Positions 1 to 41,405 of a stretch of 43,990 bases of DNA are shown here, one piece after another. Each line of letters starts with the position of its first letter. The stretch's first letter is position 1. The position numbers and the translations under genes are program-made. The notes beneath the pieces are model-generated. The model was not told the origin of the DNA and ran no database searches. It saw nothing but the letters and a program-made list of their open reading frames with translations. The stretch is from an uncultured bacterium (GTDB taxonomy: Bacteria > Hydrothermota > UBA3072), in assembly GCA_964474855.1 (NCBI GenBank), contig CAYYUB010000002.1, positions 1 to 43,990 on the forward strand. Direction: 5' to 3'.

Positions 1-883
1 CACCAACATCTACTTCTTGCGTTACTACAGCCTTTTCTTCTTTTTTATCCACGATGGAATATTCGAAGAAAATATTACCGGTTACAACCCAAACTCTTCC
101 AATTACAACAAAATTCACTCCGGAAACATTAAGAAATTGAACGGCAAGAGGAGCGTTACTGCTCACCTCTTCTTCATCGTCTATTGCAAGACTTGTTTTC
201 GCGCTACTCAAATCTGCCGCCAGGATCGCCTTAAAAGAAGAACCAAATGCCGCATCCATTTTAGTTGCGATAAGGTTCTTGATTATATCCCCAAGCCGCA
301 TCGACTTAGCATCTGCATCCTCCTCTTTAAATTTAAAAACGTAATATTCGACTTTTTCTCCCTCAAATTCCGGCATATACTTCCTGTTTAAAGTCTCAAT
401 TATTCGATCTGTTATATCATAAATATCATCAGCGTATAAAACCACACCGGTAGACGCGTCAAGAATGTAAGAAAACTCCTCTTCCTCAGCAATTTCAGAA
501 ACAATAGTATCTATTTCTTGAAGAAGAGGTTGCATCAATTCCTTATTCAAATTCTCAGCTAAACCTTCTTTACGATAAATTTCGTTAATATAATTTTCAA
601 GCTCAGTTTTCTTTTTCTGTAATTCTTCTATCTTACGTACCTTAGCTTCCTCGGTTAGCATAAATGACTGTGTCTGCAAATCCTTCTGAAGTTTCTCAAG
701 CTCTTGTTGGCGACGGTTGACTTCATTTTTCCATTCTTTAACCTTCTTTTCAAACTCATTCCTAATTTCTTGTGCTTTTTTATACTGTACCAGTATTTTT
801 TGAGAATCGATATATCCGATTTTTTGTTCGGCAAAAAGCGATAAAGCAAAAAACACGAATAAAAATTTAAAATTCCTTTTCAT
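1..883 (-). CDS. skp: Skp/OmpH-family periplasmic chaperone with an extra C-terminal domain; 3' end runs off the window (therefore absent from the ORF track)
   Basis: Hand translation of the minus strand from ATG 883-881 (GGGAGG 4 nt upstream): MKRNFKFLFVFFALSLFAEQKIGYIDSQKILVQYKKAQEIRNEFEKKVKEWKNEVNRRQQELEKLQ... It shows a signal peptide, an OmpH-type KIGYIDSQKIL opening and a K/E/Q-rich coiled coil. The frame stays open to nt 1 (about 294 codons). It lies downstream of bamA. Confidence 0.8.
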   Translation of the reverse strand, partial: MKRNFKFLFVFFALSLFAEQKIGYIDSQKILVQYKKAQEIRNEFEKKVKEWKNEVNRRQQELEKLQKDLQTQSFMLTEEAKVRKIEELQKKKTELENYINEIYRKEGLAENLNKELMQPLLQEIDTIVSEIAEEEEFSYILDASTGVVLYADDIYDITDRIIETLNRKYMPEFEGEKVEYYVFKFKEEDADAKSMRLGDIIKNLIATKMDAAFGSSFKAILAADLSSAKTSLAIDDEEEVSSNAPLAVQFLNVSGVNFVVIGRVWVVTGNIFFEYSIVDKKEEKAVVTQEVDVG

Positions 884-1826
884 TTTTCCTCCCTTTTCCT
901 GATATGGAAACACCTATACTTCCTATAAACTCACTATCGGCAAAGTTTCCGGAATATTTCCTGTTCTCAAACATTATTGAAACCGGTAGACCGCTCATCA
1001 CAAAAGAAATACCTCCCAGATACCTATTGGCTTCTACTTCAACTCCATTGCCCATAGAATATATCCTACCATACCCTAATTTAAACAATCCATAATGCAA
1101 ACCGATTATTCCTTCTTTTCTATCAATAGAGAAAATTATATTCTTATTTTCACTAAATGAATAATTGAAACCAAAACGCAGAGGTAAATCAAGTTTAAAT
1201 TCCTCTTCCTCCCCCCTCAATTCCCATTTTTCTATCTTCTGGTAAGGACAATAATAACCACCTAAACTCAAATTCCCAAAATCACAATAAAAACCCAGAC
1301 CTATCGAATAACCCCTGAAATATGTAGTAACGGTATCATAAACATCATAATACTCCAGGAAATCAATCAGCCAAAGATCATCAATTTTTCCATTTAAAAG
1401 ATTAACATCTATACCTAATGAAACAGGTCCTGAAGATTTTTTCAGGAATGCGCCAAAACGATACATCCCGCCTGTTCTAATAAAATTACTGATATAAGTA
1501 TAATCATCATTTGAAGTGATTGTAGAAGATCTTATACGTGAATCATATAGAAGATTAAAACTACCTCCCACAGAAAAACTTGAGAGAATAGGAATATTAA
1601 AGAAAGCAGAAGAAAAATCCCCTTCTGTCTTTGTGTAATCATCAGAAAAAAGTCGAAAATTAACCGAAAGACAATCCTGTGTATCTGCAAGGGCCGGATT
1701 CACACAAACATTCCCCACCACAGCAGAGGACTGAGAAAAACCATCGCTTCCTACCCATTCTCCAGGCAAACTATCCGCAAGATTAGGGTTTAAAGAAATC
1801 AAAAGAAAAAGGCTAAATTTTATCAT
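867..1826 (-). CDS. Putative outer-membrane beta-barrel protein, family unknown
   Basis: The track ORF 867..1847 starts at TTG. I prefer ATG 1826, 2 nt after the upstream stop, which gives the signal peptide MIKFSLFLLISLNPNLA. The sequence has G/Y/S/F-rich alternating strands and a C-terminal ...NEKEF aromatic terminus typical of BAM substrates. Confidence 0.6.
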   Translation of the reverse strand: MIKFSLFLLISLNPNLADSLPGEWVGSDGFSQSSAVVGNVCVNPALADTQDCLSVNFRLFSDDYTKTEGDFSSAFFNIPILSSFSVGGSFNLLYDSRIRSSTITSNDDYTYISNFIRTGGMYRFGAFLKKSSGPVSLGIDVNLLNGKIDDLWLIDFLEYYDVYDTVTTYFRGYSIGLGFYCDFGNLSLGGYYCPYQKIEKWELRGEEEEFKLDLPLRFGFNYSFSENKNIIFSIDRKEGIIGLHYGLFKLGYGRIYSMGNGVEVEANRYLGGISFVMSGLPVSIMFENRKYSGNFADSEFIGSIGVSISGKGRKNEKEF

Positions 1827-1828
1827 TA

Positions 1829-2872
1829 TCACGGGAACTCCACCCAAATAAATTTAATTTCACTATCTCCAAGCTTTTCGAAACCAATGCCCTCTTTTTC
1901 TTCTCTTGCTTCAACTTTAATATGAAAAATACTATCATCGGGAACACTTCTGAAGAAAGAAGCAAGATTGAACCTCAACGAATCACCTTCAGAAGAAGAG
2001 AGCGCGGTAAAAGACAATTCCGAAGTACTAAGATTAGCTCCTACAGTAAAAGCCATTGTATCTGCAATATCAATAACTAATTCAGCTTCCGCTATTTTAT
2101 TTAACCCCAACGGTAATGAATCTCGCGGAATGAAAATATGAGTTCTAATCGATAATCCCCTGCCAACTAAAAGAGAATCGGTAAAAATTGTATCCTGAAA
2201 TGGATTTTTAACAATATAGGCATCCTCAACACACAAAATTATAGAATTTGCCAGAGTATCTTCCGATTCTACCTTCAACCGAGTTGCCCCAGCACTAAAG
2301 GAATAAAAGCGGTCAGAATGAACGGCTAAACCGTAATTTCCAATTGAACTAATTATCGATGCATCCAGGGAGAGAGAATCTCCTAAGAAAATCAGAGAAT
2401 TTGTATCTGTAGCCGGAGAATCAACAGGTACAGGATACATTGTAGCAACTTGTATAGGACTGGTCGTATCGATAAGAGAACCAATATCATTCCACTCATA
2501 TACAGAATCTTCATACCATTCCTGCTCTAAAGCAAATAAAGTTAGCTCACAGGTAAAAGTATCCGATACAAAACGGAGAAAGAGGCTATCGAAATTTTCA
2601 GGAATAGAATCGAATTTCATTATTGAATAAGAATCAAAAACATCTTTTTTTCCGCAGAATAACAGATTCGAAGTTCCGGTAGAAATAACTCTAACACTGG
2701 TATAACTCGAATCAATTTTAACCACTTTACTAAAAACAGGCACAGGGTCGATATAATAATCCTTCTTGGAATCGCATCCAATCCCAATTAATATAGGAAC
2801 AAACAGGATAAGATTTCTCAACAGAATCAATTTACTCAAAATGTTGTACCTATCTGAAAATGAGGTTTCCAT
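1829..2872 (-). CDS. Lipoprotein of unknown function, translationally coupled to bamA
   Basis: Lipobox ...LILFVPILIGIGC followed by DSKK. ATG 2872 overlaps bamA by 37 nt. An alternative TTG at 2839 overlaps the bamA TGA (TTGA) and gives MSKLILLRNLILFVPILIGIGC. Confidence 0.7.
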   Translation of the reverse strand: METSFSDRYNILSKLILLRNLILFVPILIGIGCDSKKDYYIDPVPVFSKVVKIDSSYTSVRVISTGTSNLLFCGKKDVFDSYSIMKFDSIPENFDSLFLRFVSDTFTCELTLFALEQEWYEDSVYEWNDIGSLIDTTSPIQVATMYPVPVDSPATDTNSLIFLGDSLSLDASIISSIGNYGLAVHSDRFYSFSAGATRLKVESEDTLANSIILCVEDAYIVKNPFQDTIFTDSLLVGRGLSIRTHIFIPRDSLPLGLNKIAEAELVIDIADTMAFTVGANLSTSELSFTALSSSEGDSLRFNLASFFRSVPDDSIFHIKVEAREEKEGIGFEKLGDSEIKFIWVEFP

Positions 2873-5046
2873 CGTCTTTGGCCTTCAAATAAATTTAAGT
2901 TATATCCAAAATCAACACCGAGAACACCCATCATGGGTATCTCCGCCCTAAATCCGACTCCTACGCCATAAAAGAGATCCATCATATTAGCCTCCTGCAA
3001 ATTTGCAAAACAGTTACCGGCATCCAGAAATATCATCCCGTATCCTTTATCTGCAAAATTCAACCTCAGCTCAAGATTATTAAGGAAGGCAAAATTACCT
3101 CCGACATATTCCCTTGTCGGGTCAGGGATAATTACCTCATTATCGTAACCACGCAAACCCCAGGTTCCTACACCACCAAGCAGAAATCTTTCAAGTAAGG
3201 GAACTGTCTTTCCTGACGGAGCGTATGCATAACCTATTTTCGTCCTATTCATAATGACCATATCTTCCGCAAAAATAGACTGAACTTTCCTGGCTTCAAG
3301 GTCTAACTTATAATACCTTCTACTTCCACCTAAAATACCTCCCGCATACTTACCTCCCAAAGAATAATAGCTACCCACAGTCGGAGCTATCTTAGAATCT
3401 CTGGAATCATAAATCAGGCTCCCATACAATGAACTCTCCCAGTTTATCCCTGAATCGAAGTCCGCGTATTCACCGGAAGCATCCACACTTTCCTTTTCCA
3501 ACCTGTAAGTAAACAATGATGTAAGATTTCTTTCCTTATTTAAAATTCTACCAGCAGAGACAGAACCTCCTACTTCCTTTACACTGTAGTAAGTTCTCTG
3601 CCAATGTCTATTATATAGACTAAAACCAACGGAAGTAGGTGTATCAAAAAGCCACGGCTGATTCCATGATAATAATATATTCTGAAGAGATCTGCCTTCA
3701 GTAGACGCGAGAGTCCTTTCTAAGGAAAAACTAAATATTTGCCCTGTTCCAAATACATTAGGCATCGTCACATTAATTCCTCCGGTAAGACCGTAACTCC
3801 CGGAAAAACCTACAGTTCCCGAAAAATATCCGGTAGGTTTTTCCGTTACTTCCAGAATTAGATCTATAGAATCAGGAGACGGGAAATCCATATCTATCTT
3901 CATATCAGAAAAATAACCAAGTCGAAAAATATTCCTGTAACTGTGCATTATTCTATCTCTTTGAAAAAGCTTCCCAGGATAAACAACTGTGTTTCTTCTG
4001 ATTACCTTATCATAAGTCTTATTGTTACCCATTATATTGACAAACCTTATATAAACAGGACTCCCCTTATCAACATAAAGGTCAATATCAACTATCGAAT
4101 CTTTCACAATATTATAGTTGGGTAAAATTGTTGGATTTAAATAACCGAACTCGGAATAAAAAATAGAAAGATCTTCCATTGTTTTTTGAATTTTATCCTC
4201 GCCGAACAACTCGCCTTTTTTCCATTTTATCCTACTCGAAATAAAACCAAGGTCCTCCGTGCCCTCAAGATGAGTATCCCCAAAGTAATAAAGTCTTCCT
4301 TCGTCAACAACATAATTTATTACAGCAGCGTTATCTTGATAATCCACATAAAAAGTATCTACAGCAACACTTAAATATCCATAATTCCTATACAATGCTT
4401 CAATTTTCGGCACATCGGCTTGCAATGAATCCAATTTCAAGCCATTATTTCTCCAAAAAAGGTACCAGGTTTTAGTCTTGTTTGAAAGAACCTTGGAAAG
4501 AACATGGTCTGAAAGACCGTCATTATCAATAAAATTAATCTTTTTAACCTTATATTTCGCTCCTTCATCAATGATAAAAGTCACATTTACTCCATCTTCC
4601 TCTTCTACCTTTGAAAGTGAAATCTCGGTTCCCGAAAATCCCTTTTCTTCATATAAATTATATATTTTTTCCTTTATCCTGTGCAATTTATAATCGGAAA
4701 GCATAGCCGGAGGGGATAAATCAACCAACGATGAAATATCTCCGTCGCTCAATTTATTGTTACCTTCAAACTCTAATGACTTAAGACGAGGATTTTCTAT
4801 TACCACAATTACCAACCTTACTCCCCCACTTTTGCGTTTAGAATGGAGTTTCACATCAGCAAAAAATCCGGTCAGATAAAGACTTTTTATCGCTTTTATT
4901 CCCTTCTCCTGCGTCAATACCTCACCTACCCTAAAACCGGAAGAACGAACAACCAGAGAAGTATCGACTTCCATAAGCCCTTCTACATCTACTTCTACTA
5001 TTACCTCTCCATAAGGGAAAGCGAATAAAAAAAACAATCCTAACAT
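2836..5046 (-). CDS. bamA: Outer membrane protein assembly factor BamA (Omp85 family)
   Basis: 736 aa. N-terminal POTRA-like repeats (e.g. VKKINFIDNDGLSD, IRFVNIMGNNKTYDKVIRR), then an Omp85/D15 barrel (LGGVGTWGLRGY, FLDAGN) ending in ...HFQIGTTF. Confidence 0.95.
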   Translation of the reverse strand: MLGLFFLFAFPYGEVIVEVDVEGLMEVDTSLVVRSSGFRVGEVLTQEKGIKAIKSLYLTGFFADVKLHSKRKSGGVRLVIVVIENPRLKSLEFEGNNKLSDGDISSLVDLSPPAMLSDYKLHRIKEKIYNLYEEKGFSGTEISLSKVEEEDGVNVTFIIDEGAKYKVKKINFIDNDGLSDHVLSKVLSNKTKTWYLFWRNNGLKLDSLQADVPKIEALYRNYGYLSVAVDTFYVDYQDNAAVINYVVDEGRLYYFGDTHLEGTEDLGFISSRIKWKKGELFGEDKIQKTMEDLSIFYSEFGYLNPTILPNYNIVKDSIVDIDLYVDKGSPVYIRFVNIMGNNKTYDKVIRRNTVVYPGKLFQRDRIMHSYRNIFRLGYFSDMKIDMDFPSPDSIDLILEVTEKPTGYFSGTVGFSGSYGLTGGINVTMPNVFGTGQIFSFSLERTLASTEGRSLQNILLSWNQPWLFDTPTSVGFSLYNRHWQRTYYSVKEVGGSVSAGRILNKERNLTSLFTYRLEKESVDASGEYADFDSGINWESSLYGSLIYDSRDSKIAPTVGSYYSLGGKYAGGILGGSRRYYKLDLEARKVQSIFAEDMVIMNRTKIGYAYAPSGKTVPLLERFLLGGVGTWGLRGYDNEVIIPDPTREYVGGNFAFLNNLELRLNFADKGYGMIFLDAGNCFANLQEANMMDLFYGVGVGFRAEIPMMGVLGVDFGYNLNLFEGQRRWKPHFQIGTTF

Positions 5047-9544: not shown

Positions 9545-10744
9545 ATGAAAAAAACAAGAAAACCGCATATCCTGTTCGTAGTTGAAAACAAACAAATCCC
9601 TATGGATACCAGAGTCTTCAAGGAAGCTAAAGCTTTAGAAGAAGAAGGACTAGAGGTATCCATTATTTGCCCGAATTTAAACAAAGAAAAAAAATATCAC
9701 AAAAAATTAGGTAATATCGAGGTATTTCAATACCCTTGTTTTTTCGAAGGAAAATCATTTATTGGTATAATAGTTGAATACTTAATTGCTATTCTCTTTA
9801 TATTATTCAAGTCTATAAAAATATACCTCAGAAAACCTTTTCACATAGTACATCTTGCAAATCCGCCTGATTTTCTGATTTTTCTTTTTTTACCTTTCAA
9901 GCTCTTTGGTGTTAAAATAGTATTCGACCATCATGACCTATCGCCTGAGCTATTCGCTGAGAAATTTCAAAAAAAGAATTTTTTTTACAAATTATTACTT
10001 CTATGTGAAAGATTATCTTATAAAATAGCTGATTCTATAATTACAACAAACAAATCTGTCAAGATTACTTGTATTGAAAGAAACAAAGTCTACGGAAAAA
10101 GAATTTCTATAGTAAGAAATGGCCCTGATTTAAATAAAATAAGTTTCTGCAAAACTAAAGAAAACCATGTAAAAAAAAGGAGTTACCTCATTGGATATAT
10201 TGGAAATATAGACGAACAGGATTCTTTGGAAAAACTTGTAAATTCTGTCGATTATATAGTAAAGGAAAGAAATTTTGATGATTTTAGGGTCTTAATAATA
10301 GGCGACGGAACTAATCGCTTAAGGATTGAGGAGGATATAAGACGGAAAAAGCTCCAAAATTATTTCATCTTCTATGGCTTTGAATATAATAGAAAAAAAA
10401 TATTTTCCTTACTGTCAAAGATAGACATTGGAGTAGAGCCAAGCAAAGAAACAGAAAAATTTTCTAAATCAACATCAATAAAAGTTATGGAATATATGGC
10501 TGTTGGCAAACCCATAGTTCAATATAACACAGTAGAAGGGAGATTTACTGCTGGAGTTGCTTCCTTATTTATACGAAACAATGATGAGAAAGCCTTCGGA
10601 GATGCAATCATCTCTCTTCTCAAAGATGATAAAAAAAGAAAGAAGATGGGCGAATATGGTAAGAATAGGGTAAAAAAATTACTGCAATGGGATATCCAGA
10701 AAAACAAATTGTTAAATGTCTATCAAAATTTAATATACCCCTGA
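9545..10744 (+). CDS. Glycosyltransferase, GT-B fold, GT4 family
   Basis: 399 aa. GT4-type C-terminal E-x7-E region (GVEPSKETEKFSKSTSIKVMEYMAVGKPIV). Confidence 0.85.
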   Translation: MKKTRKPHILFVVENKQIPMDTRVFKEAKALEEEGLEVSIICPNLNKEKKYHKKLGNIEVFQYPCFFEGKSFIGIIVEYLIAILFILFKSIKIYLRKPFHIVHLANPPDFLIFLFLPFKLFGVKIVFDHHDLSPELFAEKFQKKNFFYKLLLLCERLSYKIADSIITTNKSVKITCIERNKVYGKRISIVRNGPDLNKISFCKTKENHVKKRSYLIGYIGNIDEQDSLEKLVNSVDYIVKERNFDDFRVLIIGDGTNRLRIEEDIRRKKLQNYFIFYGFEYNRKKIFSLLSKIDIGVEPSKETEKFSKSTSIKVMEYMAVGKPIVQYNTVEGRFTAGVASLFIRNNDEKAFGDAIISLLKDDKKRKKMGEYGKNRVKKLLQWDIQKNKLLNVYQNLIYP

Positions 10745-27275: not shown

Positions 27276-27635
27276 TTAATTTTCTTCAATAAATTGTTCT
27301 CCAAAATGATTACTTAACTTCTTTAAGATTTTATTAAGACGTTTTAATGATATCTTTCCCAGTTGTCCTTCAAGAATTGATTCTTCGACTGTAGCAAGTT
27401 TACCAATCCTAATTAAAGAAGAAACCTTTAATCCCGAACTTTTAAAATCTCCATCAGCTTCAACTATTAACTCATCCCAACCAGTTATTTCGTGTTTTAA
27501 TTGGGAAGTTATCGCACAAACCAGCCAGTCATCAAAAGGGCCAGGAATCTTCGATATTAACAGAACAGGCCTATATTTTCCCTCCTGTAAATTAGTATGG
27601 GGGAATTTAATTAGTATTATATCTCCAGGCTTCAT
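27276..27635 (-). CDS. mazF: MazF/PemK-family type II toxin (endoribonuclease)
   Basis: MKPGDIILIKFPHTNLQEGKYRPVLLIS...VCAITSQ is the PemK/MazF pattern. The stop of the upstream small gene lies 2 nt away. Confidence 0.8.
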   Translation of the reverse strand: MKPGDIILIKFPHTNLQEGKYRPVLLISKIPGPFDDWLVCAITSQLKHEITGWDELIVEADGDFKSSGLKVSSLIRIGKLATVEESILEGQLGKISLKRLNKILKKLSNHFGEQFIEEN

Positions 27636-27637
27636 AT

Positions 27638-27853
27638 CTATGCGTTGATGTCCTCTAATGAGTATTCTACTTCTTCTGAATTATTCCAGAAATCAAAAGC
27701 ACCAGTATTTAAAGAAAAATCACTCCAGGATTTTCCTTTCTCTGCTGAAAAACGTTTCCTTTCTTCAATAAAAGCAACAAAATCATAGATTTCATCTATT
27801 AAAGATTCGGGAAGTCTCTCTATTTCCTTTATAAGCTGCTTTTTACTTTTCAT
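27638..27853 (-). CDS. Putative cognate antitoxin (DUF2281-like small acidic protein)
   Basis: 71 aa. LIKEIERLPESLIDEIYDFVAFIEERK. Lies directly upstream of the toxin. AAGGAG SD. Confidence 0.6.
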   Translation of the reverse strand: MKSKKQLIKEIERLPESLIDEIYDFVAFIEERKRFSAEKGKSWSDFSLNTGAFDFWNNSEEVEYSLEDINA

Positions 27854-27974: not shown

Positions 27975-28146
27975 TTTTTGTTGCTACTTCTGTGGTGGGT
28001 TAGGTTCTAAAAAACAAGATTTTTCTTTGCGTTTTCTATGAGTTCTGTGTGAGAATATTTTTTCTGGGTCGGGTTGAGGAAAAAACAACAATTTTTTACT
28101 TTGCGACCTCTGCGTCTTTGCGGTGAATTTTAGCGGCTTTGCCGCG
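27975..28146. repeat. Mosaic intergenic repeat block A
   Basis: Contains reverse-orientation modules: cttctgtggtgggttaggttctaaaaaac, ctatgagttctgtgtgag, ctgggtcgggttgaggaaaaaac, ctttgcgacctctgcgtctttgcggtg (28099-28125), and the hairpin module. Confidence 0.75.
28133..28145 (-). terminator. Short GC hairpin immediately after the stop of the UDP-sugar dehydrogenase gene (member of repeat module f)
   Basis: GCGGC-TTT-GCCGC, then an A/T-rich tail on the minus strand. The same hairpin occurs at 34914-34926, with a degenerate copy at 40209-40226. Confidence 0.35.
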
Positions 28147-29445
28147 CTATGCTCTGAAAATCTTATCGCTTTTAATATCGGAAAGAGCGTTTCTTGTATC
28201 TACAACAATAGAAGAATTCTCAACAATATTTTTGTAATCGATATCTGAATGAGCAGTAACAATAATAACCCCATCCTGTTCCTTTAGAAATTCTTCTGTC
28301 AGTTTTACCGAACTCATGACCAAATCGGTCTGTCTCAGATCATATATCGCAGGAATATAAGGATCATAATAGGACACCTCTGCCCCACCTTTTTGAAGAA
28401 GCTCAATTATCTTTATACCCGGAGACTCTCTGGAATCATCAATATCTTTCTTATAAGCAATACCTATAACAAGAATTTTAGAACCCTTCAATGATTTATT
28501 ATTCTTATTTAAAGCGGAGATAGTTTTCATCACAACATATTCGGGCATCATTGTGTTAATCTCCCCGGCAAGTTCAATGAATTTGGTGTTAATTCCAAAT
28601 TTTCGCGCTTTCCAAGAAAGATAAAAAGGATCTATCGGAATACAATGCCCTCCAAGTCCCGGCCCGGGATAAAAAGGTTTAAAACCAAAAGGTTTCGTCT
28701 TAGCCGCCTCGATTACCTCCCACACGTTTATCCCCATCTTGTCAAATATAATTTTCAGCTCATTCACGAGAGCAATATTTACAGAACGATAAGTATTCTC
28801 CAATATTTTTGTCGCTTCGGCAACCTCAGCAGATGAAACTTCCACAATTTCGTCGAAAATAGTGTTATAAATTTCAACAACTTTCCTTCTCGACTGTTCT
28901 GTAATACCCCCAATCACTTTTGGAATATTTTTCGTAGTAAATTTTTCATTGCCCGGGTCTTCTCTTTCAGGAGAAAACGCGAGATAAAAACCCATATCCA
29001 ATTCATTCCCCGCATTCTCTAATATTGGAAGCAAAATTTCTCTGGTAGTACCGGGATAAACTGTAGATTCAAGAACAACTATAGCTCCCTGTTTCAAATT
29101 CTCCGCTATTGACTTTGCCGAATCCTCAACAAAAGATAAATCAGGCTGACGGTATTTATCAAGCGGGGTCGGAACACAAATAGATACCAAATCCACTTCG
29201 TTTAACCTCAAAAAATCAGTAGTGGCAGTAAAAAGACCGGAATTAAGAAAATCTTTGACCTTATCCTCTTGTATATGCTTTAAATAAATTTCTCCTCTGG
29301 AAAGCTTGTCAATCTTTCTTTCATCAATATCAAAACCAATAGTTTTGTATCCGGCACGTACAAATTCCATCGCGAGAGGTAACCCAACATAACCTAACCC
29401 AATTACCCCAAGGACTTTTTCGCGTTTCTCTTCATTATTTTTCAT
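28147..29445 (-). CDS. UDP-N-acetyl-hexosamine 6-dehydrogenase (nucleotide-sugar dehydrogenase, WbpA/WecC/Cap5O group)
   Basis: GVIGLGYVGLPLA NAD-binding N-terminus and the catalytic GGHCIPIDP motif. 432 aa. Confidence 0.9.
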   Translation of the reverse strand: MKNNEEKREKVLGVIGLGYVGLPLAMEFVRAGYKTIGFDIDERKIDKLSRGEIYLKHIQEDKVKDFLNSGLFTATTDFLRLNEVDLVSICVPTPLDKYRQPDLSFVEDSAKSIAENLKQGAIVVLESTVYPGTTREILLPILENAGNELDMGFYLAFSPEREDPGNEKFTTKNIPKVIGGITEQSRRKVVEIYNTIFDEIVEVSSAEVAEATKILENTYRSVNIALVNELKIIFDKMGINVWEVIEAAKTKPFGFKPFYPGPGLGGHCIPIDPFYLSWKARKFGINTKFIELAGEINTMMPEYVVMKTISALNKNNKSLKGSKILVIGIAYKKDIDDSRESPGIKIIELLQKGGAEVSYYDPYIPAIYDLRQTDLVMSSVKLTEEFLKEQDGVIIVTAHSDIDYKNIVENSSIVVDTRNALSDIKSDKIFRA

Positions 29446-29487: not shown

Positions 29488-29757
29488 ACCACACAACCCT
29501 CATTTTTTCAACCACAGAGAACACAAAACCCTTCATCCACACCAAATTTGAACCACGAGATTTCACAAGATTAACACAAGATTTTCTGTTTCTTTAAAAA
29601 CCCACCCCAACAACGAATGATTAGCCACGGATGAACACGGATATAAAAAGGATATAAAATATTTTTTATTTAATAACAATAATATAGGGTAAGTGAGGGG
29701 ATCTGTGTCTATCGGTGAAAATCAGTGGCTGTTATTAATTAAATCCTCTGTGGTTAA
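29488..29757. repeat. Mosaic intergenic repeat block B (internally mirrored)
   Basis: AACCACAGAG (29510-29519) and CTCTGTGGTT (29746-29755) act as 10-nt terminal inverted repeats. Forward modules occupy 29551-29581 and 29596-29643. The centre AAAATATTTT is at 29656-29665. Reverse modules occupy 29686-29736. Confidence 0.8.
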
Positions 29758-30775: not shown

Positions 30776-31279
30776 ATGAAAAAAGAATTTGCTTCCATCC
30801 CATTTTTCGGACCCGGAAAAAAAGTAATCGATATAGGATGCTGGGATAATATCGAACCTTCAATAACACTGGCTTCAAAAGGAACCATTGTTTTTGCAGT
30901 AGACCGCTACCAAAAAATGACAGAGTTCAAAGAAAAACTTCTCAACTCAATTGAAAATAAAAAAGTCAGCAAAGAAATTTCAGAAAAAATTATTCCTTTA
31001 AAAGCAAACGCAATAAACCTGCCCTTCCCGGGGCAATGTATTGACGGAATACTTTTTCTATATTCAATATCCTGGCTAGAACAGTTCGGTACAGAACCTT
31101 TGATAGCTTATAAAGAAGCTATGAGGGTTTTAAAAAATGATGGATTAGTAATTATAACTGAATCAAACAACACCAGAGCGGAAATCCAGGAAAAATTCCT
31201 AAATACAATGATGAAAACGGAAAGAAGCGGAAATATTGTTATTGGAAGGAAATTCGCGCCCGAAGAAGAACTATTTTAA
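30776..31279 (+). CDS. Short methyltransferase-fold protein with a degenerate SAM motif
   Basis: VIDIGCWDN replaces the usual G-x-G-x-G motif. LKNDGLVIITE is post-motif-like. 167 aa. Confidence 0.55.
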   Translation: MKKEFASIPFFGPGKKVIDIGCWDNIEPSITLASKGTIVFAVDRYQKMTEFKEKLLNSIENKKVSKEISEKIIPLKANAINLPFPGQCIDGILFLYSISWLEQFGTEPLIAYKEAMRVLKNDGLVIITESNNTRAEIQEKFLNTMMKTERSGNIVIGRKFAPEEELF

Positions 31280-31280
31280 A

Positions 31281-31515
31281 ATAGCCACAAAGACACAAAG
31301 ATAATGGGACACAGATAAACGCAGATTGAAAAGGATTTTTTATTTCTAAATTCCTCCCAACCCAAAAATATATAGACAGGATAAAAAAAGGATTTACAGG
31401 ATTTTTATTTGTTGGTATTTTAAATTCCAACCCAACGAACCCAATGAACTCAACAAACTCCATAAACTAATAATCGCACAGATTAACACTGATTTTAAAA
31501 GATTTTTTGTTTTGT
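31281..31515. repeat. Mosaic intergenic repeat block C
   Basis: gccacaaagacacaaag (31284-31300), acgcagattgaaaaggatttttt (31319-31341), a 42-nt exact inverted match to block F (31373-31414), and aataatcgcacagattaacactgatt (31469-31494). Confidence 0.9.
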
Positions 31516-31575
31516 TTGACTTCTCAGTTGTACCACCATGTGCCTGAACTCTCCCCCGAATTAATAGACTCGCCC

Positions 31576-31604
31576 TTGACCTTTTTTAAGATACCGATTA
31601 TAAT
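31576..31604 (+). promoter_or_regulatory. Near-consensus sigma70-type promoter with a leader of about 170 nt before the 31779 methyltransferase gene
   Basis: TTGACC-17 nt-TATAAT. Confidence 0.55.
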
Positions 31605-31691
31605 CTTTAATAATAAATAAAAAATTAAAAAGGATAACTACATCGTCGAAAATCAACATTATATTAGACCAGATTTTCCAAATAGGAGGAA

Positions 31692-31748
31692 ATGATTAAG
31701 CTAAATAGGGGTAAAGGTGACATTATCGTCTATGAACCAGTTAGGTGA
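31692..31748 (+). CDS. Possible 18-codon upstream ORF in the leader of the 31779 methyltransferase gene
   Basis: AGGAGG lies 5 nt before ATG 31692. Hand translation: MIKLNRGKGDIIVYEPVR*. Located between the consensus promoter (31576-31604) and the ATG at 31779. Confidence 0.3.
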   Translation: MIKLNRGKGDIIVYEPVR

Positions 31749-31778
31749 AAACCGTTTAAACCACTAAGGAAGATTTAT

Positions 31779-32582
31779 ATGAAAAAAAACAAGGCAATTG
31801 AACATAATATCCGGGGCCATGATAGCATCTATAATAAATATGAGCAAATACATGGTGAAATTTTTAACCCTATAGAACAAGAGCGTCTCCGTAAACAACT
31901 CTCACTAGCGATTAGATATATCAAAACATCTTCAATCCAAAAAGAAGCGCTTGATTATGGCTGTGGATCAGGGAATCTTACACAACATATGATTGCCTTA
32001 GGTTTTTATGTGGTTTCTACGGACATCTCGGAAAAATTTCTCACACTTATTAAAGAAAAATATAACCATACTGAAAAATCAGAGCCCTTGAAAATCAATG
32101 GACAAGACTTGTCTAATATTGAAAATAATCGGTTTGATTTTGTTGCCACTTACTCTGTATTGCATCACGTTCCGGATTATCTACAAATAATCAAAGAGAT
32201 GGTTCGAGTAGCTAAACCAGGAGGCATTATATATCTTGATCACGAAGCGAATGAATCCTACTGGAAGAGTAATGAGTATGTCGAATTTCTACAATTAGTT
32301 CAACCTAAAAAAAATTGGAAAAGATTTTTAAAGTTATCGAGTTACATTAACAAAATTCGAACAATTATAAATCCGCGATATTCAGCATGGGGAGATATAC
32401 ATGTTTGGCCGGATGATCATATAGAATGGAATGAAATCGAAAATTTATTAGCAAATTGTGGATGCGAAATTGTTTTGAAAGAAGATTATTTGCTGTATAG
32501 AAAAGGTTATCCTGTCGATATTTATCAAGCGTACAAAAATAAAATTAATGAAACGCGAGTGTTAATTGCGCGTAAAAAATGA
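31779..32582 (+). CDS. Class I SAM-dependent methyltransferase
   Basis: ALDYGCGSGNLTQHMIALGFYVVSTDIS, VLHHVPD and AKPGGIIYLDHE. AAGGAAG SD. Confidence 0.8.
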   Translation: MKKNKAIEHNIRGHDSIYNKYEQIHGEIFNPIEQERLRKQLSLAIRYIKTSSIQKEALDYGCGSGNLTQHMIALGFYVVSTDISEKFLTLIKEKYNHTEKSEPLKINGQDLSNIENNRFDFVATYSVLHHVPDYLQIIKEMVRVAKPGGIIYLDHEANESYWKSNEYVEFLQLVQPKKNWKRFLKLSSYINKIRTIINPRYSAWGDIHVWPDDHIEWNEIENLLANCGCEIVLKEDYLLYRKGYPVDIYQAYKNKINETRVLIARKK

Positions 32583-32640
32583 TCTTCGCCTGACACAACA
32601 TTATTAAAGAAAATTCAACCCTGAAGAAAAACTTTTTTAA

Positions 32641-32842
32641 TATTACCGCAGAGACACTGAGAACGCAGAGAAAAAAAAAGAGAGTTTCTTTGTTGTTTTT
32701 TTACTAAATCCCAAACCCAAAATTCTAAATCCTAATTTTGTAATTTTGCTTTTTAATTTTTGATATTTTATTTTCAAGTTTTAACTGACCAACGCACCAA
32801 CCGTCTAACCGACCAACGGATTAATTTTATTAATCCAACCCC
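32641..32842. repeat. Mosaic intergenic repeat block D
   Basis: accgcagagacactgagaacgcagag (32645-32670). 32687-32778 is a direct copy of 35052-35138, and is followed by ccaacgcaccaaccgtctaaccgaccaacgg. Confidence 0.85.
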
Positions 32843-34447
32843 TCACCTTCCCACAGAAACAACTGTCTTTTCTATACTTCTCGTAGAGCCGTCAGCGTCT
32901 TCGATCAATAAAAAAACTACGTAGAGACCTGTAGGAACTATCTCACTCCTGCTGTCTTTTCCATCCCATATCCACTCTCCTCTTTCCCCTCCATAACTAT
33001 CTCTATTTTCACGTAAAAGATGCCCTCTCCTATCATATATTTTGACAGTCACTTCATTTCTCAGGTAAGGAAGATTAAAAGAAATCACACAAGTTTCACC
33101 TACCCCATCCCCATCAGGTGTAAAATGCTCAGGAGTTACTGCAAGAGAAACGTCCGTTCTCTTATACTCGGCGAATACTGAATTTACCTCTCCCGGCGTA
33201 CCACCTTCCCCTACGGACTGCCCCCAATTTGTGGGATTATCGGAAGATATTTCCGGATTGATTCTTTCTAAAGAATAATTTCTCTCGGCATTATTCGCGG
33301 AATAAACCACCCTATCCAAAACAAATCCATTCTCATCAAATAAAAAAACACTATCTCCACTGTTTGAAAATGATAGACTCATCTCTAAAACCGAGGAAGG
33401 TATATTGCCATAATAACTCAAAAAAGAAGTAGAATCCGAGGTGATTACAAGAAAATCTCCGGGAAGAACTTCTATATCTGAAGAAGAAACATTATCTATT
33501 CTAAAAGAATCCAGTGAAACCTTATATTCAGATCTATTAAAAAGTTCTACCCATTCGGGCGGTCCACCTGGCGCATACATAATCTCATTTATAACAAAGC
33601 CCGATATTCCATCTCCTATCCTGACCCTTCTAAAAATAGTTTCACCTATCAAATCAAAACCAATAATATAAACACCTTCTGATAATAGCGAAAAATCAAT
33701 TCGGAAGGAAGAATCCTGCGAAATATCGAGAAGAGTAAAAGTATTAATTAACTCTCCTGCATCAAGAATCCTATTTTTATTCTCGTCATTAAAAACCTCT
33801 ATCGTTCCGCTTAATGCCACATCATGAGAATTAACCAAAAGAACCGATATATTATTGCCCAGAACCCAGAGAGAATCAAATAAGAAATCGGGAGCCGAAT
33901 AAACCGAATTCTCTCTTCCGGGTGTAGAACCGGAAACATCTTCACAAGCCCTCCAGTTCTCAGGAATATCACCGCTATAAGGGTAACCCCTTTCTATGGA
34001 AATTCCATCTCCCGGATTAGAAGGATTATAATATGTAGAAACCGTATCTCCAGCCGGAGAGATAAGGGCAATCGGATCCGTAGTTGCAAGCCCATTTCCT
34101 ATTGCAGCATCACCCACTGTAAGCAAAATACAGGAAGGAACGCCGTAGGGCATATAATTCTCACCCGAATCTACATACTCGGGATCCAATATAAGCGCAA
34201 ATTCTCCCGGCAAAACAATAGCGATAGAATCTCCGGAAAGAGCATGGAAAGGAACAATTTCATCAACAGCATCAAAATCAAAATCCGTAATCTTCCAACC
34301 ATCTAAATTTACCGTGTCGGGACCCGTATTAAAAACTTCAATAAACTCATTCCTATCCTCAGGAGATCCAACCCCACTGGACCCAAGAGGGTTTGACATT
34401 ACCTCGTTGATACAAACAGCAGAAAATAACAAAAATAAAAAACACAT
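32843..34447 (-). CDS. Secreted protein with two lamin-tail (LTD) domains, a central Ig-like region and a FlgD-Ig/T9SS-type C-terminal beta-sandwich
   Basis: Signal peptide MCFLFLLFSAVC. LTD signatures INEVMSNP...NEFIEVFNTG...LDGWKI and INEIMYAPGGPPEWVELFN. C-terminus VTVKIYDRRGHLL...WDGKDSRSEIVPTGLYVVFLL. Confidence 0.7.
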   Translation of the reverse strand: MCFLFLLFSAVCINEVMSNPLGSSGVGSPEDRNEFIEVFNTGPDTVNLDGWKITDFDFDAVDEIVPFHALSGDSIAIVLPGEFALILDPEYVDSGENYMPYGVPSCILLTVGDAAIGNGLATTDPIALISPAGDTVSTYYNPSNPGDGISIERGYPYSGDIPENWRACEDVSGSTPGRENSVYSAPDFLFDSLWVLGNNISVLLVNSHDVALSGTIEVFNDENKNRILDAGELINTFTLLDISQDSSFRIDFSLLSEGVYIIGFDLIGETIFRRVRIGDGISGFVINEIMYAPGGPPEWVELFNRSEYKVSLDSFRIDNVSSSDIEVLPGDFLVITSDSTSFLSYYGNIPSSVLEMSLSFSNSGDSVFLFDENGFVLDRVVYSANNAERNYSLERINPEISSDNPTNWGQSVGEGGTPGEVNSVFAEYKRTDVSLAVTPEHFTPDGDGVGETCVISFNLPYLRNEVTVKIYDRRGHLLRENRDSYGGERGEWIWDGKDSRSEIVPTGLYVVFLLIEDADGSTRSIEKTVVSVGR

Positions 34448-34455
34448 CTTGATTC

Positions 34456-34483
34456 ATTATAGAAGAAAAATATTGAATGTCAA
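34456..34483 (-). promoter_or_regulatory. Consensus promoter of the LTD-protein gene; -10 box ends 8 nt before ATG 34447 (leaderless-type)
   Basis: TTGACA(34483-34478)-16 nt-TATAAT(34461-34456)-gaatcaag-ATG. No SD. Confidence 0.6.
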
Positions 34484-34504
34484 GAACTCCCCCTAATGAC
34501 AAAA

Positions 34505-34886
34505 ATGGAAAACAAACATTCATTTGACCATAATTAAATTACTATAATGGCAAAACTTGACCATGTGGAAAACTTGTTGGAAAAATTCTACCCATGGACT
34601 AATTCACTGATTACCAATACTTTAAACCATATAACTTATCCACAACGTTTTATTATAAATCCTTCACTATTAGGAACTTAACAAAAGCGCAAGGTAATAA
34701 TAGAAATTGTATCGCTTATCAACTTTTTTATATCGGATTTTCCCCTAACGGAAATCTCTTCGTGGAAAATCTTGAAATACCCCAACTGTAAAACAAAAAA
34801 TTCTTAAAAAAAATTTTTAGAATTTTTTTATAGAGAATAAGCTTAGAGATTTTCTTACCCGTAAAAAGTTAACAAACTGTGGAAGG
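34505..34886. other. Cluster of DnaA-box-like 9-mers plus an A/T palindrome in an 853-nt gene-free gap
   Basis: TTATCCACA is perfect at 34636-34644. TTTTCCACA lies at 34564-34572 (reverse). TTTTCCACg lies at 34761-34769 (reverse). ccTTCCACA lies at 34878-34886 (reverse). There are further TGGAAAA cores at 34505 and 34578. The palindrome is AAAAAATTCT(34795-34804)/AGAATTTTTT(34819-34828). Confidence 0.3.
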
Positions 34887-34910
34887 TAAGTTATTGATAG
34901 GCGACATCCT

Positions 34911-35140
34911 AACGCGGCAAAGCCGCTAAAATGTAAAAATTAAATATCAAAATGTAAAATTATAAAAAAGAATTCAGAAGCCAGGAGTCGGAATCCAGAA
35001 TCCCAACCCAACTCCCAAAAAAATTATTGAACCACAAAGTGCACAAAGATTTTCTTTTTGTTTTTTTACTAAATCCTAAATCCAAAATCCTGAATCCTAA
35101 TTTATTATTTTGCTTTTTGATTTTTGATATTTGATTTACC
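34911..35140. repeat. Mosaic intergenic repeat block E
   Basis: Hairpin plus AAAATGTAAAAATTAAATATCAAAATG (34914-34962), cccaacccaactccc, accacaaagtgcacaaag (35031-35048), and a direct copy of block D (35052-35138). Confidence 0.85.
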
Positions 35141-35234
35141 AGAAAAAGACGAAGAAATAAAATGGGATATTTTTTGCAAAAAAAAACAAAAAGTTGACTG
35201 ACAGTACTATAGAGAAGCGAACTTCTTAATGAAA

Positions 35235-35265
35235 GAAACCCGGGGAATTCACCTCTCAGGGTTTC
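35235..35265 (-). terminator. Stem-loop downstream of the porin-like gene
   Basis: GAAACCC(35235-35241)...GGGTTTC(35259-35265), a 7-bp stem with a 17-nt loop. It is followed by a T-run on both strands and begins 36 nt after the stop. Confidence 0.45.
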
Positions 35266-35300
35266 TTATTGAAAGTCTATGTTCTCTCTAAAAAGTAGTC

Positions 35301-36314
35301 TTACTGGGTAAAAATATTGCTAAAACCCCACTGCAATTGAACCATCAATTGAGTAATATCACTCATAATATCATCCTCAAAAATAGTTTTCTGTCCTTGA
35401 ATTTGCAGGAAAACTTGAGGTTTATCCTTCGCGTCTCTAACGATATTCCAGTTCAACCCTCCGATAATACGCGTATGACCATCATCCGCAATATCGCCGT
35501 TTTCGTCCCACATATCAAATCTACCGATAAGATCTACATCAATATTCATTAATTCTCTAAGTTTAAGTATAGGCATAACCATAAATCCATTGCTTTTAAC
35601 GCTATTTCTATTCTGAACGAGATACTCACCTAAGAGTTCAAAAGGACCTTTAGAAAAACGCCCCAAACCTATAACTGCAAGTTTATCCGTATCGGTAAAG
35701 TACAATACAGAACCCCCGAAAGTAAAACCTGGAACAAGCGTAAGCCTGAGGTTACCCAAAAGTTCTGGAGTAACGTCTAAATCGCTACCTGTAACAGTAT
35801 AGCCTTCTCCATTATAAATCGAAATCGAATATACCCCTTTATCGCTTGGAAGATTTCCGCAGAAAGCAATTCCATAATCAGCGGATTTTGCAACACCCTC
35901 TACTTCTTCCAGTACCTTCTCTATTGTAATATATTCCCAATCATAACCAAAACCGAAATAATGCTGAATTAAACCAACGCTAATTTTACTTTCCGGTATG
36001 GGTAAAACCTCAGCAAAATTAAGGTAGGCATACTTTACTCTAACGCCACCACCTGTAGTAGAAGTTTCGTCGGAGAAGAAATCCAGGTTAAATCTACCGT
36101 CTATCTTATCCGTAATAGTAGGCTCAATCCTGAAATAACCCCTCTCCAGAGTAAGTTTACTTTGAGTTACCTCATTATCAATAATTTCAGTGGTATACCT
36201 ATTCCACAATTTCATAGAAACCTTTGTCTCCCCTACCTCTCCCCCCATTAAGTTCATGGGAGTAAAAATAAAAACACTAACCAATAAATAAACCAAGCAC
36301 TTAAACCTTCTCAT
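35301..36314 (-). CDS. Putative outer-membrane porin-like beta-barrel protein
   Basis: Signal peptide MRRFKCLVYLLVSVFIFTPMNL, alternating beta-strand pattern and many G/Y/F/N residues. GGAGGG SD. Confidence 0.55.
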   Translation of the reverse strand: MRRFKCLVYLLVSVFIFTPMNLMGGEVGETKVSMKLWNRYTTEIIDNEVTQSKLTLERGYFRIEPTITDKIDGRFNLDFFSDETSTTGGGVRVKYAYLNFAEVLPIPESKISVGLIQHYFGFGYDWEYITIEKVLEEVEGVAKSADYGIAFCGNLPSDKGVYSISIYNGEGYTVTGSDLDVTPELLGNLRLTLVPGFTFGGSVLYFTDTDKLAVIGLGRFSKGPFELLGEYLVQNRNSVKSNGFMVMPILKLRELMNIDVDLIGRFDMWDENGDIADDGHTRIIGGLNWNIVRDAKDKPQVFLQIQGQKTIFEDDIMSDITQLMVQLQWGFSNIFTQ

Positions 36315-36469
36315 AAAAACCCTCCTACAATTTTACAAATTTACATTAAACATCACTTCTTAAAATCATCCTATAACAAAGATAACAATAGCGCTTCCAA
36401 TGAAAAATAAAACATAATTTAAATAGACTATTAATTAATTATCAACTACTGTCAAGGGCGAAAAACGCT

Positions 36470-36765
36470 ATCCGCCGAGGCTAACGGCAAAAAAAAAGAA
36501 TTCGTGTTATTTGTGTAATAATTAGTTTATTGAGTTTATAGAGTTCATTGGGTTTGTTGGGTTAGATTTAAAAAAACAACAAATAAAAATCCTGTAAATC
36601 CTTTTTTTATCCTGTCTAAATATTTGGTGTCGTGGGTTGGGTTCTAAACAAAAAAAATCCTTTTAAATCTGCGTCCGATTATTGGGGTGTGGTGTGGCTC
36701 TGTGTTCTCTGCCTGCCCCGTAGGGAAGAATGACCGTATCGGGGTGTCTCTGTGGCCAAAAACAA
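36470..36765. repeat. Mosaic intergenic repeat block F
   Basis: An inverted copy of block C (36521-36675, including the exact 42-mer 36577-36618), ggggtgtggtgtgg, ggctctgtgttctctgcc (36696-36713) and gtgtctctgtggcc (36744-36757). Confidence 0.9.
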
Positions 36766-37159: not shown

Positions 37160-37436
37160 AATAGTTAGGATGTTAGGAGGTTAGAAAGTTGGGGAGTTAA
37201 AACAAAAAAATAAACTTTGTGATCTCTGTGTCTTTGTGTGAGATATTAGGTTTTAGGTCTTGGGTTTTAGGTTTTAGGAAAAACAAATAAAAAATGGGAG
37301 GTGGTTGGGTAATCCGTGTGAATCTGTGTTAATCCGTGGCTAATTATTGGTGGTGCGGGATGGGTTTTAAACAAAAAATCCTTTTTAATCTGCGTTCATC
37401 TGCGTCCTATCATTGCGGGTAGTGTGGGTTCTGGTC
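37160..37436. repeat. Mosaic intergenic repeat block G
   Basis: ctttgtgatctctgtgtctttgtgtgag (37215-37242), ttaggttttaggtcttgggttttaggttttagg, aatccgtgtgaatctgtgttaatccgtggctaattatt (37311-37348), gggatgggttttaa (37357-37370) and aaaaaatcctttttaatctgcgt (37373-37395). Confidence 0.85.
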
Positions 37437-40204: not shown

Positions 40205-40511
40205 ATAGCAGCGCTTCAAAGCCGCTAAAATGCAAAAATTAAATATCAAAATGAAAAATGACAAATCAAAATTCAAAAATGAATTAAAAAAAATTACCAC
40301 AGAGTGCACAGAGGAAAACAGAACACACAGAGTACACAGAGATTTTTATTATGTTCCTTAAAACCCATCCCAATACCCCAATAATAGCTACAGATGAACA
40401 CGGATTAAAAAAAATATTTTGTTGTTTAAAAATAAAAAATATTGGGGGGAGGTTGGGTAGTCTTGTGTTAATCTGTGAAATCTTGTGGTTACTATTTGGG
40501 GTGTGGTGTGC
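40205..40511. repeat. Mosaic intergenic repeat block H (both orientations in one gap)
   Basis: A copy of the block-E hairpin/A-T module (40213-40261), accacagagtgcacagag (40296-40313), acacacagagtacacagag (40323-40341), ttaaaacccatccc (40358-40371), aataatagctacagatgaacacggatt (40380-40406) and the centre AAAATATTTT (40411-40420). Reverse modules follow: ggggggaggttggg, and tcttgtgttaatctgtgaaatcttgtggtt (40461-40490). Confidence 0.85.
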
Positions 40512-41405
40512 ATGAATTGGACTAAAATCCCTGCATTCGCAAAGATAAATCTCGGTCTTCATATCCACGAAAAAAGAGAAGATGGCTTCCATTCAATCGA
40601 ATCTATCTTTCAAACGATATCTCTTAAAGATACACTCTACTTCAAACTGGAAGGAAACGTAATAGAGATTCTTTCCGACAATCCTAATTTGCCGGGTGGA
40701 CCCTCTAATTTAATATATAAAGCAGCAAGTATGTTTAAAGATAAACAATGTAAAGGATTTGGAGTTAAGATAAAAGTCGAAAAAAAAATACCGATTGGTG
40801 CGGGCCTCGGAGGAGGAAGTTCAAACGCGGCCGCAACCCTATTAACCTTGAATCGTTTACTGGAATATCCCAAAAATACGGAAGAATTAATGGAATGCGC
40901 AAAAAAACTTGGCTCGGATGTACCATTTTTTTTGAAAGGCGGAACAGCACTTGTAAAGGAAAGAGGGGAAAAAGTTGAATGGGTGAAAGATATCCCAACA
41001 TTTCAACTCTTGCTTGCAGTCCCTTCATTTCCAATATCGACAAAAGATGCCTACAATTGGTGGGATAACGAAGAAAAACAAGCCTTGACAAATGAAGACT
41101 TAAGCCTTATACTTCAAAAAATGCAAGAGGGAAAAAGGGAAATCTTTGGTAAATTGGAGAATTCCTTTTGTGAGATAATTTCAAAAAAATACCCTCAAGT
41201 AAAAAATGCTATGGAAGAGTTAAGAAGAATGAACCCAATAAATGTTATATTAAGTGGTTCTGGTTCTGCTATATATGCAATATTCGGATCAGAAAAATAC
41301 AACTATAGGGGGGGAGATATTAAAGAAGATCAATATACATTAATGAATTACAAAAGTATCTCCCGGGAAGAGTACTTCAACTTGTTAAAACCAAAGGAGG
41401 ACTAA
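40512..41405 (+). CDS. ispE: 4-diphosphocytidyl-2-C-methyl-D-erythritol kinase
   Basis: PAFAKINLGLHI and the GHMP motif KIPIGAGLGGGSSNAAA. The track start 40485 (GTG) lies inside repeat block H. ATG 40512 gives the usual N-terminal length. Confidence 0.9.
   Translation: MNWTKIPAFAKINLGLHIHEKREDGFHSIESIFQTISLKDTLYFKLEGNVIEILSDNPNLPGGPSNLIYKAASMFKDKQCKGFGVKIKVEKKIPIGAGLGGGSSNAAATLLTLNRLLEYPKNTEELMECAKKLGSDVPFFLKGGTALVKERGEKVEWVKDIPTFQLLLAVPSFPISTKDAYNWWDNEEKQALTNEDLSLILQKMQEGKREIFGKLENSFCEIISKKYPQVKNAMEELRRMNPINVILSGSGSAIYAIFGSEKYNYRGGDIKEDQYTLMNYKSISREEYFNLLKPKED

Follow-up and report, generated by a model that had tools for sequence, protein, structure and literature searches.

The two arms of an inverted repeat that bracket a 5.2-kb, three-gene segment in DNA of an uncultured bacterium (contig CAYYUB010000002.1; the whole stretch of 43,990 nt analyzed here is called the window) are very probably paralogous copies of a dispersed, modular intergenic repeat specific to their lineage, candidate division WOR-3, rather than the termini of a segment that can invert or move. 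This reading draws on direct observation of the number of copies, their mosaicism, the fixed orientation of the segment, the absence of the arms from relatives and the lack of structure in the arms; we infer that gene conversion homogenises the copies and that no function of the family is specific to this pair. In the mechanism that we propose, modules would pass from one copy to another through homologous recombination or gene conversion and leave patchwork similarity behind, and the perfect block of 42 nt shared by arms otherwise ~77-82% identical would be one recently homogenised patch. The enclosed segment is ancestral and fixed in orientation, and holds a conserved region with DnaA-box-like motifs.

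A preliminary description of this DNA had reported that a 42-mer in the left arm (TAGACAGGATAAAAAAAGGATTTACAGGATTTTTATTTGTTG) is the exact reverse complement of one in the right arm (Table 1), and this is correct, with 42 nt as the maximal exact match of the pair. It had placed this core within inverted copies of ~155 nt, which are indeed homologous but too short: alignment with MAFFT extends the homology to about 230 nt (~31284-31515 vs ~36490-36758), with shared module order and an insertion of 47 nt in the right arm relative to the left. BLAST aligns the arms at 82.5% identity across 177 nt (31319-31489 vs 36504-36674), and the repeat finder returned the pair as 60 nt at 95% and 100 nt at 74%. 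Recurrence by chance had been dismissed, and we agree, as 100 shuffled versions of the window contain no match to a 25-nt piece of the core, even when 3 mismatches are tolerated. Since identity outside the core is ~77%, a perfect run of 42 nt is unexpected from uniform divergence (~5e-4 by our own estimate), and the patch is homogenised or constrained by something. Most likely, family members acquired this identity through recent copying or gene conversion.

About three paralogous sub-units in tandem make up each arm. The left arm is a mosaic of a CCACAAAGACAC module followed by three such sub-units (~31310-31372, 31373-31476 and 31477-31515), whose internal direct repeats (31314-31340, 31380-31406 and 31481-31507) align with one another, and the right arm has the same module order on the minus strand, with the 47-nt insertion in its distal module. 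A sub-unit consists of two to three heptamers containing GAT (CACAGAT, CGCAGAT, ACAGGAT), a T-run, a TTTG/AAA stretch and a C/A-rich tract of the CCCAACCCA type. The GAT triplets are spaced at 10/10, 11/9 and 10/10, and on the C/A-rich strand C outnumbers G by a ratio of 1.4-1.7. We considered the GAT heptamers as DnaA boxes and rejected this by inspection, with 5/9 positions matching. The arms have no terminal inverted repeats, the local inverted repeats being merely matches between A/T runs, and no short target-site duplications. Both strands of both arms fold no better than shuffles (z +1.10, +1.57, -1.14 and +0.46), and by the fold scores and the inverted-repeat test a palindromic hairpin unit of the repetitive extragenic palindromic (REP) type is absent from them. 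No arm matched Rfam at E<=1, and the sole match in the window to reach the gathering score was a tRNA.

An nhmmer profile seeded with both arms, run against 174 kb of related, non-redundant sequence, found 29 copies, 7 of them in the window, and within the lineage the copies lie at multiple non-orthologous intergenic loci. When aligned, the 29 copies share modules in variable combinations, and such a patchwork of shared blocks is what one would expect if dispersed copies repeatedly underwent short-tract gene conversion or recombined with one another. The preliminary description had judged the two arms far better conserved than other family members, which holds inside the window but fails at other loci: the longest exact stretches that copies at separate loci have in common measure 119, 83, 69, 59 and 56 nt, and the 42-mer of the arm pair ranks 16th. 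The right arm itself shares 119 exact nt with contig L004, 83 with L005 and 56 with L002, and its second and third blocks are nearly identical to these copies, while the left arm shares just the 42-nt block with this subfamily; the block downstream of the core in the left arm instead matches the orthologous right site of another lineage, L024, over 46 exact nt. Outside the window, the 25-nt core fragment occurs in L002, ~3.5 kb upstream of the window start in a metagenome-assembled genome (MAG), twice in a 66-kb contig (L003, L004) and in the 6-kb contig L005. A search for more copies of the 42-mer, which had been proposed as a check, found it complete in L004, beside a toxin-antitoxin module, where the copy is 98.6% identical to the right arm over 142 nt despite the unrelated locus. 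Among other family copies the core sequence varies widely. A limited search of the literature turned up no description of WOR-3 intergenic repeats.

The depth of Logan unitigs bears on how many copies the population holds. L004 and L005 were rejected as extra copies in the window's own genome, as the genes unique to them show zero depth wherever a run contains the window; they belong to related genomes. The 3′ part of the 42-mer has a depth of 37 against 15.3 + 21.3 for the unitigs flanking the arms, which corresponds to about two copies in the window's population, and its 5′ 31-mer reaches 65-127 against ~15-21 per copy, which implies that it sits in several additional contexts in the community. 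Modules of other types in these intergenic regions stand at 5-30x the baseline unitig depth.

Comparison with relatives indicates that the segment is old and the arms are young. The porin-like protein of the window has relatives at 92% (L024), 81% (L019), 76% (L022) and 73% identity (L021, 458 kb), and in all four the genes run in the order TMEM260-like and cold-shock genes, then porin and lamin-tail domain (LTD) gene, then methyltransferases and UDP-glucose dehydrogenase gene, with the same relative orientation. A comparison of synteny had been suggested for the segment, and order and orientation are thus the same in relatives with 73-92% porin identity; since even distant ones share the arrangement, the segment is ancestral and fixed. 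In L021, two methyltransferase genes lie 19 nt apart with no left arm between them. In the L024 lineage, which co-occurs with the window's and has an identical cold-shock protein next to its 92% identical porin, four contigs carry the orthologous right site without the 42-mer and without the module that precedes it, and the downstream module at this site is of the type found in the window's left arm. Differences between lineages at orthologous sites are module replacements and not clean insertions. As the 42-mer or the arm is absent in relatives with the same gene order, both copies of the 42-mer are recent additions. Recent duplication or gene conversion, which the preliminary description had put forward, is thus supported by the youth of the copies (absent at the L024 right site, with no left arm in L021) and by a perfect patch within flanks of ~77% identity.

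Both arms point to a promoter, which brings in the first alternative: that the sub-units are cis-elements, acting as phased arrays of GAT heptamers for a regulator or nucleoid protein or as C-rich sites for Rho loading or insulation, with the 42-mer kept by selection. We consider this unlikely. The regular GAT spacing across every sub-unit, the C/G asymmetry of a strand that folds no better than shuffles and the retention of the general pattern among diverged copies would all fit it. So would the sigma-70-like promoters downstream of both arms, one lying 60 nt beyond the left arm and 175 nt before the methyltransferase gene begins at 31779, the other lying 35 nt beyond the right arm and ahead of the porin-like gene, which begins at 36314, and across the family a promoter scoring >=10/12 lies <=220 nt downstream of 8/17 strong copies, against 4/17 on the other side. 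However, this association is weak and not significant, and the orientation of copies relative to neighboring genes is inconsistent, with ~6 loci co-oriented and 3 opposite in tandem intergenic regions (not significant). In addition, orthologous promoters in relatives work without these modules, the porin promoter being conserved where they are missing, and the core is highly variable among copies. The arms are mutually inverted because each points to its own promoter and gene and the two genes are oriented toward one another. Replication-strand bias was tried as a cause of the inverted arrangement and rejected, the G/T-rich strand lying on the presumed leading strand in 9/13 informative copies (not significant). 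We also give a small chance to the idea that these non-palindromic, strand-asymmetric repeats with phased GAT triplets form an undescribed class, serving as a binding array or as portable homology for the exchange of surface-glycan and methyltransferase cassettes, with rare RecA inversion conceivable.

The perfect inverted identity of 42 nt, around a segment that holds promoters and a candidate origin region, had suggested a substrate for inversion or excision, and a 5.2-kb inversion could proceed by RecA across the 42 nt or by a recombinase encoded elsewhere. If this were true, the DnaA-box region would flip and the flanks faced by the methyltransferase and porin promoters would swap. We examined assemblies and Logan unitigs (k=31) of 2019 runs, where a 31-mer cannot bridge the 42-nt core, and gathered independent contigs from many samples by exact-protein look-up. 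The left junction (167-aa methyltransferase, arm, 267-aa methyltransferase) was found in 11 distinct contigs and the right junction (porin, arm, cold-shock gene) in 10, all of the window type, and the three contigs spanning both arms (L008, L010, L018) all have the window's order and orientation. Ten of the 11 left arms are identical to the window's over 232/232 nt, the eleventh having a single mismatch, and all 10 right arms are identical over 269/269 nt. Unrecombined arms read AAAATATA-core-GTATTTTAAATTCC and CCAAATATT-core-TTTTTTTAAATCT, and recombination would swap their 3′ flanks; no chimeric arm or swapped 3′ flank occurs in the 11 left-junction, 10 right-junction and 3 both-arm contigs. 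Joints between unitigs were 20-nt side matches to other family copies and not junctions. Flanking inverted repeats are present as in an inverton, but an adjacent recombinase, both orientations and a repeat specific to the switch were not found. The absence of a recombinase from the window, noted previously, was borne out by a domain scan, with no recombinase or transposase domain in any scanned open reading frame (ORF) of the 44 kb. With 24/24 junction observations in one orientation, synteny fixed down to 73% porin identity, and arm sequence also present, with better-matched copies, at other loci and hence not a dedicated site, we regard inversion or excision as very unlikely. This is in essence the outcome for which the preliminary description had said that the pair would be just two members of a dispersed family.

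The least credible alternative takes the segment for a composite transposon, or the arms for elements like miniature inverted-repeat transposable elements (MITEs) inserted at both sites, so that segment or arm could be excised: the presence or absence of arms between close lineages and the 58-nt direct duplication around the left arm and methyltransferase cassette speak for it, but the arms lack terminal inverted repeats, short target-site duplications and significant fold scores, the window has no transposase, close lineages differ by replacing modules, the porin and LTD genes are ancestral at the locus, and unitig depth between the arms is similar to that of the flanks.

Some points weigh against the reading of the arms as ordinary copies of a dispersed family. 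If the core were under selection as a site bound by a protein, this would account for its perfect conservation too. Equally conserved copies in the same genome are shown for L002 only (56 exact nt, in the 98% MAG), and the complete 42-mer in the window's population seems confined to these two arms. Because an assembler outputs whichever form is in the majority, the data are compatible with a rare inverted subpopulation, and since RecA-dependent recombination usually needs less than 42 nt of perfect identity, inversion could physically occur now and then.

Table 1. Coordinates of the arms, family members, promoters and neighboring features in the window.
Feature	Position	Strand	Evidence or remark
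Left arm	31284..31515	+ (C/A-rich strand)	MAFFT; nhmmer match 31312-31468, E 1.5e-41
Right arm	36490..36758	-	MAFFT; nhmmer match 36524-36680, E 1.9e-46
Left copy of perfect 42-mer	31373..31414	+	Exact reverse complement of 36577-36618
Right copy of perfect 42-mer	36577..36618	-	Exact match with left copy
Family member, divergent intergenic region	29578..29669	+	nhmmer E 4.1e-05; repeat finder
Family member, between cold-shock and TMEM260-like genes	37256..37403	-	nhmmer E 4.8e-21; repeat finder
Family member, upstream of ispE	40326..40427	+	nhmmer E 1.2e-04; repeat finder
Sigma-70-like promoter, TTGACC-17-TATAAT, 11/12	31576..31604	+	Sequence match
Sigma-70-like promoter, TTGACA-17-AATAGT, 10/12	36427..36455	-	Sequence match
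3′ end of 167-aa methyltransferase gene and first module	31239..31296	+	Direct repeat with 32600-32657
Relic copy of 167-aa methyltransferase 3′ end, just after 267-aa gene	32600..32657	+	58 nt, ~74% identity
Class-I S-adenosylmethionine (SAM) methyltransferase, 267 aa	31779..32582	+	Pfam Methyltransf_11, E 3e-20
Secreted protein, lamin-tail domains and C-terminal CHU_C (type IX secretion)	32843..34447	-	Domain search
Porin-like protein, OprO/P phosphate-selective porin family	35301..36314	-	Distant homologues with PF07396
Conserved non-coding region, candidate oriC	34448..34900		Perfect TTATCCACA at 34636; boxes invariant in five-genome alignment

At least 24 metagenome runs from salt marsh contain the window. 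Proteins homologous to its porin-like protein carry the name candidate division WOR-3, and the contig L002, from a species-representative MAG, overlaps its positions 1-4290 at 98%. It encodes BamA, a polysaccharide-synthesis cluster, a PemK/MazF toxin-antitoxin pair, three class-I methyltransferases, an LTD/CHU_C secreted protein, a porin-like protein, a cold-shock protein and a TMEM260-like glycosyltransferase, along with ispE, spoVG, prs and the gene for ribosomal protein L25. The three genes enclosed by the arms are those described previously, a class-I SAM methyltransferase, an LTD/CHU_C secreted protein and a porin-like protein, the last of which has no Pfam match itself. A porin homologue in L023 adjoins pstSCAB-phoU, with the porin first and pstSCAB-phoU downstream. 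In L023 (10001-15135) and in L025 the homologues follow a histidine kinase/Hpt pair, the L025 contig ending just past the gene, and L025 has a full-length family element at 9555-9695, ~300 nt upstream of the porin homologue and oriented as the window's right arm.

The 267-aa methyltransferase gene is a variable cassette, missing in some relatives by synteny. Direct repeats at 31239-31296 and 32600-32657 bracket the left arm, its promoter and this gene, and the second of them, a relic, is closer to the gene ends of L021 and L024 than to the window's own. This resemblance suggests recombination as the route by which the cassette arrived. Across the left arm and cassette (31431-32772), unitigs of the Logan runs X1-X4 have 50-70% of the left-flank depth (X2: 12.7 vs 26), which co-occurring strains with near-identical flanks and another cassette, of the L024 type, would explain. 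The L024-type cassette encodes a 318-aa methyltransferase and a FlgD_ig protein. In the related genome of L004, a MazF/PemK-type pair lies between two direct family copies (339-487 and 1232-1331) that share 54 exact nt, and the PemK/DUF2281 pair of the window (27276-27853) has family modules adjacent. To judge from such arrangements, small cassettes bracketed by family copies seem common.

Between the porin and LTD genes, the region 34448-34900 (~450 nt) is conserved like the flanking genes in five WOR-3 genomes and contains invariant DnaA-box-like motifs (TTGTGGATAAGTT, TTTTCCACAT, TTTTCCACA and TTCCACA). At one mismatch, DnaA boxes are not enriched over the whole window (15 vs 12.8 expected), and the cluster is supported by conservation alone. 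The local GC skew changes sign near 36.4 kb; the region adjoins the LTD promoter and is not next to dnaA. An origin of replication (oriC) or a DnaA-regulated region is plausible here. As the arms are absent from relatives that keep it, they are not part of this region.

Two further repeat families were seen in the window. One consists of a GCGGCAAAGCCGC hairpin followed by TAAAATGTAAAAATTAAATATCAAAATG (34913-34979, 40212-40278 and, on the reverse strand, 28127-28149), usually right after a stop codon and also 3′ of the UDP-glucose dehydrogenase gene in L019 and L022, and it has the highest unitig depth of the region (238-775 vs ~25). The other is a T-rich module with short-period AAATCC/TAAATCC repeats, with two copies 80% identical (32685-32760 and 35050-35125), and elsewhere in the metagenome its copies have CCTTGACA, a -35-like hexamer, directly 3′.

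Even though the arm pair is incidental and not a switch, the repeat family to which it belongs is worth recording. It fragments WOR-3 assemblies, as contigs end at its copies in L002, L005 and the Logan unitigs, and it spawns ORFs that are likely spurious, such as those at 31239-31463 (minus strand, 74 aa) and 40284-40592 (minus strand, 102 aa). These two ORFs cross repeat modules, and their translations are of low complexity. The family also marks the borders of variable cassettes (methyltransferases, toxin-antitoxin pairs) and may thereby promote gene exchange among co-occurring strains.

Among known systems, the nearest analogues are mosaic intergenic repeats, namely bacterial interspersed mosaic elements (BIMEs) and BOX elements. 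Like the BIMEs of Escherichia coli and other enterobacteria, the WOR-3 family is dispersed, strictly intergenic and non-coding, built of mosaic modules in many copies and free of an internal transposase; unlike them, it has no palindromic REP hairpin units in the arms, and the sequences are unrelated. With the BOX elements of Streptococcus pneumoniae it shares ordered modules in variable number, comparable to boxA, boxB and boxC, and an intergenic position often near promoters, but BOX elements have a predicted stable secondary structure that is not seen in the arms, and there is no sequence similarity. Correia elements, MITEs of ~155 bp in Neisseria, are similar in size, in having hundreds of intergenic copies and in carrying or adjoining promoters, although their 26-bp terminal inverted repeats and TA target duplication are absent from the arms. 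Invertible switches (Hin/Gin, FimBE and the Bacteroides-type invertons) likewise have inverted repeats around a segment containing a promoter, but none of their nearby recombinase, locus-specific repeats and occurrence in both orientations was found here. Taken together, as the hairpin or palindrome that defines these elements was looked for in the arms and is absent, the family is a different variant of intergenic repeat and not a member of the REP, BIME, BOX or MITE groups.

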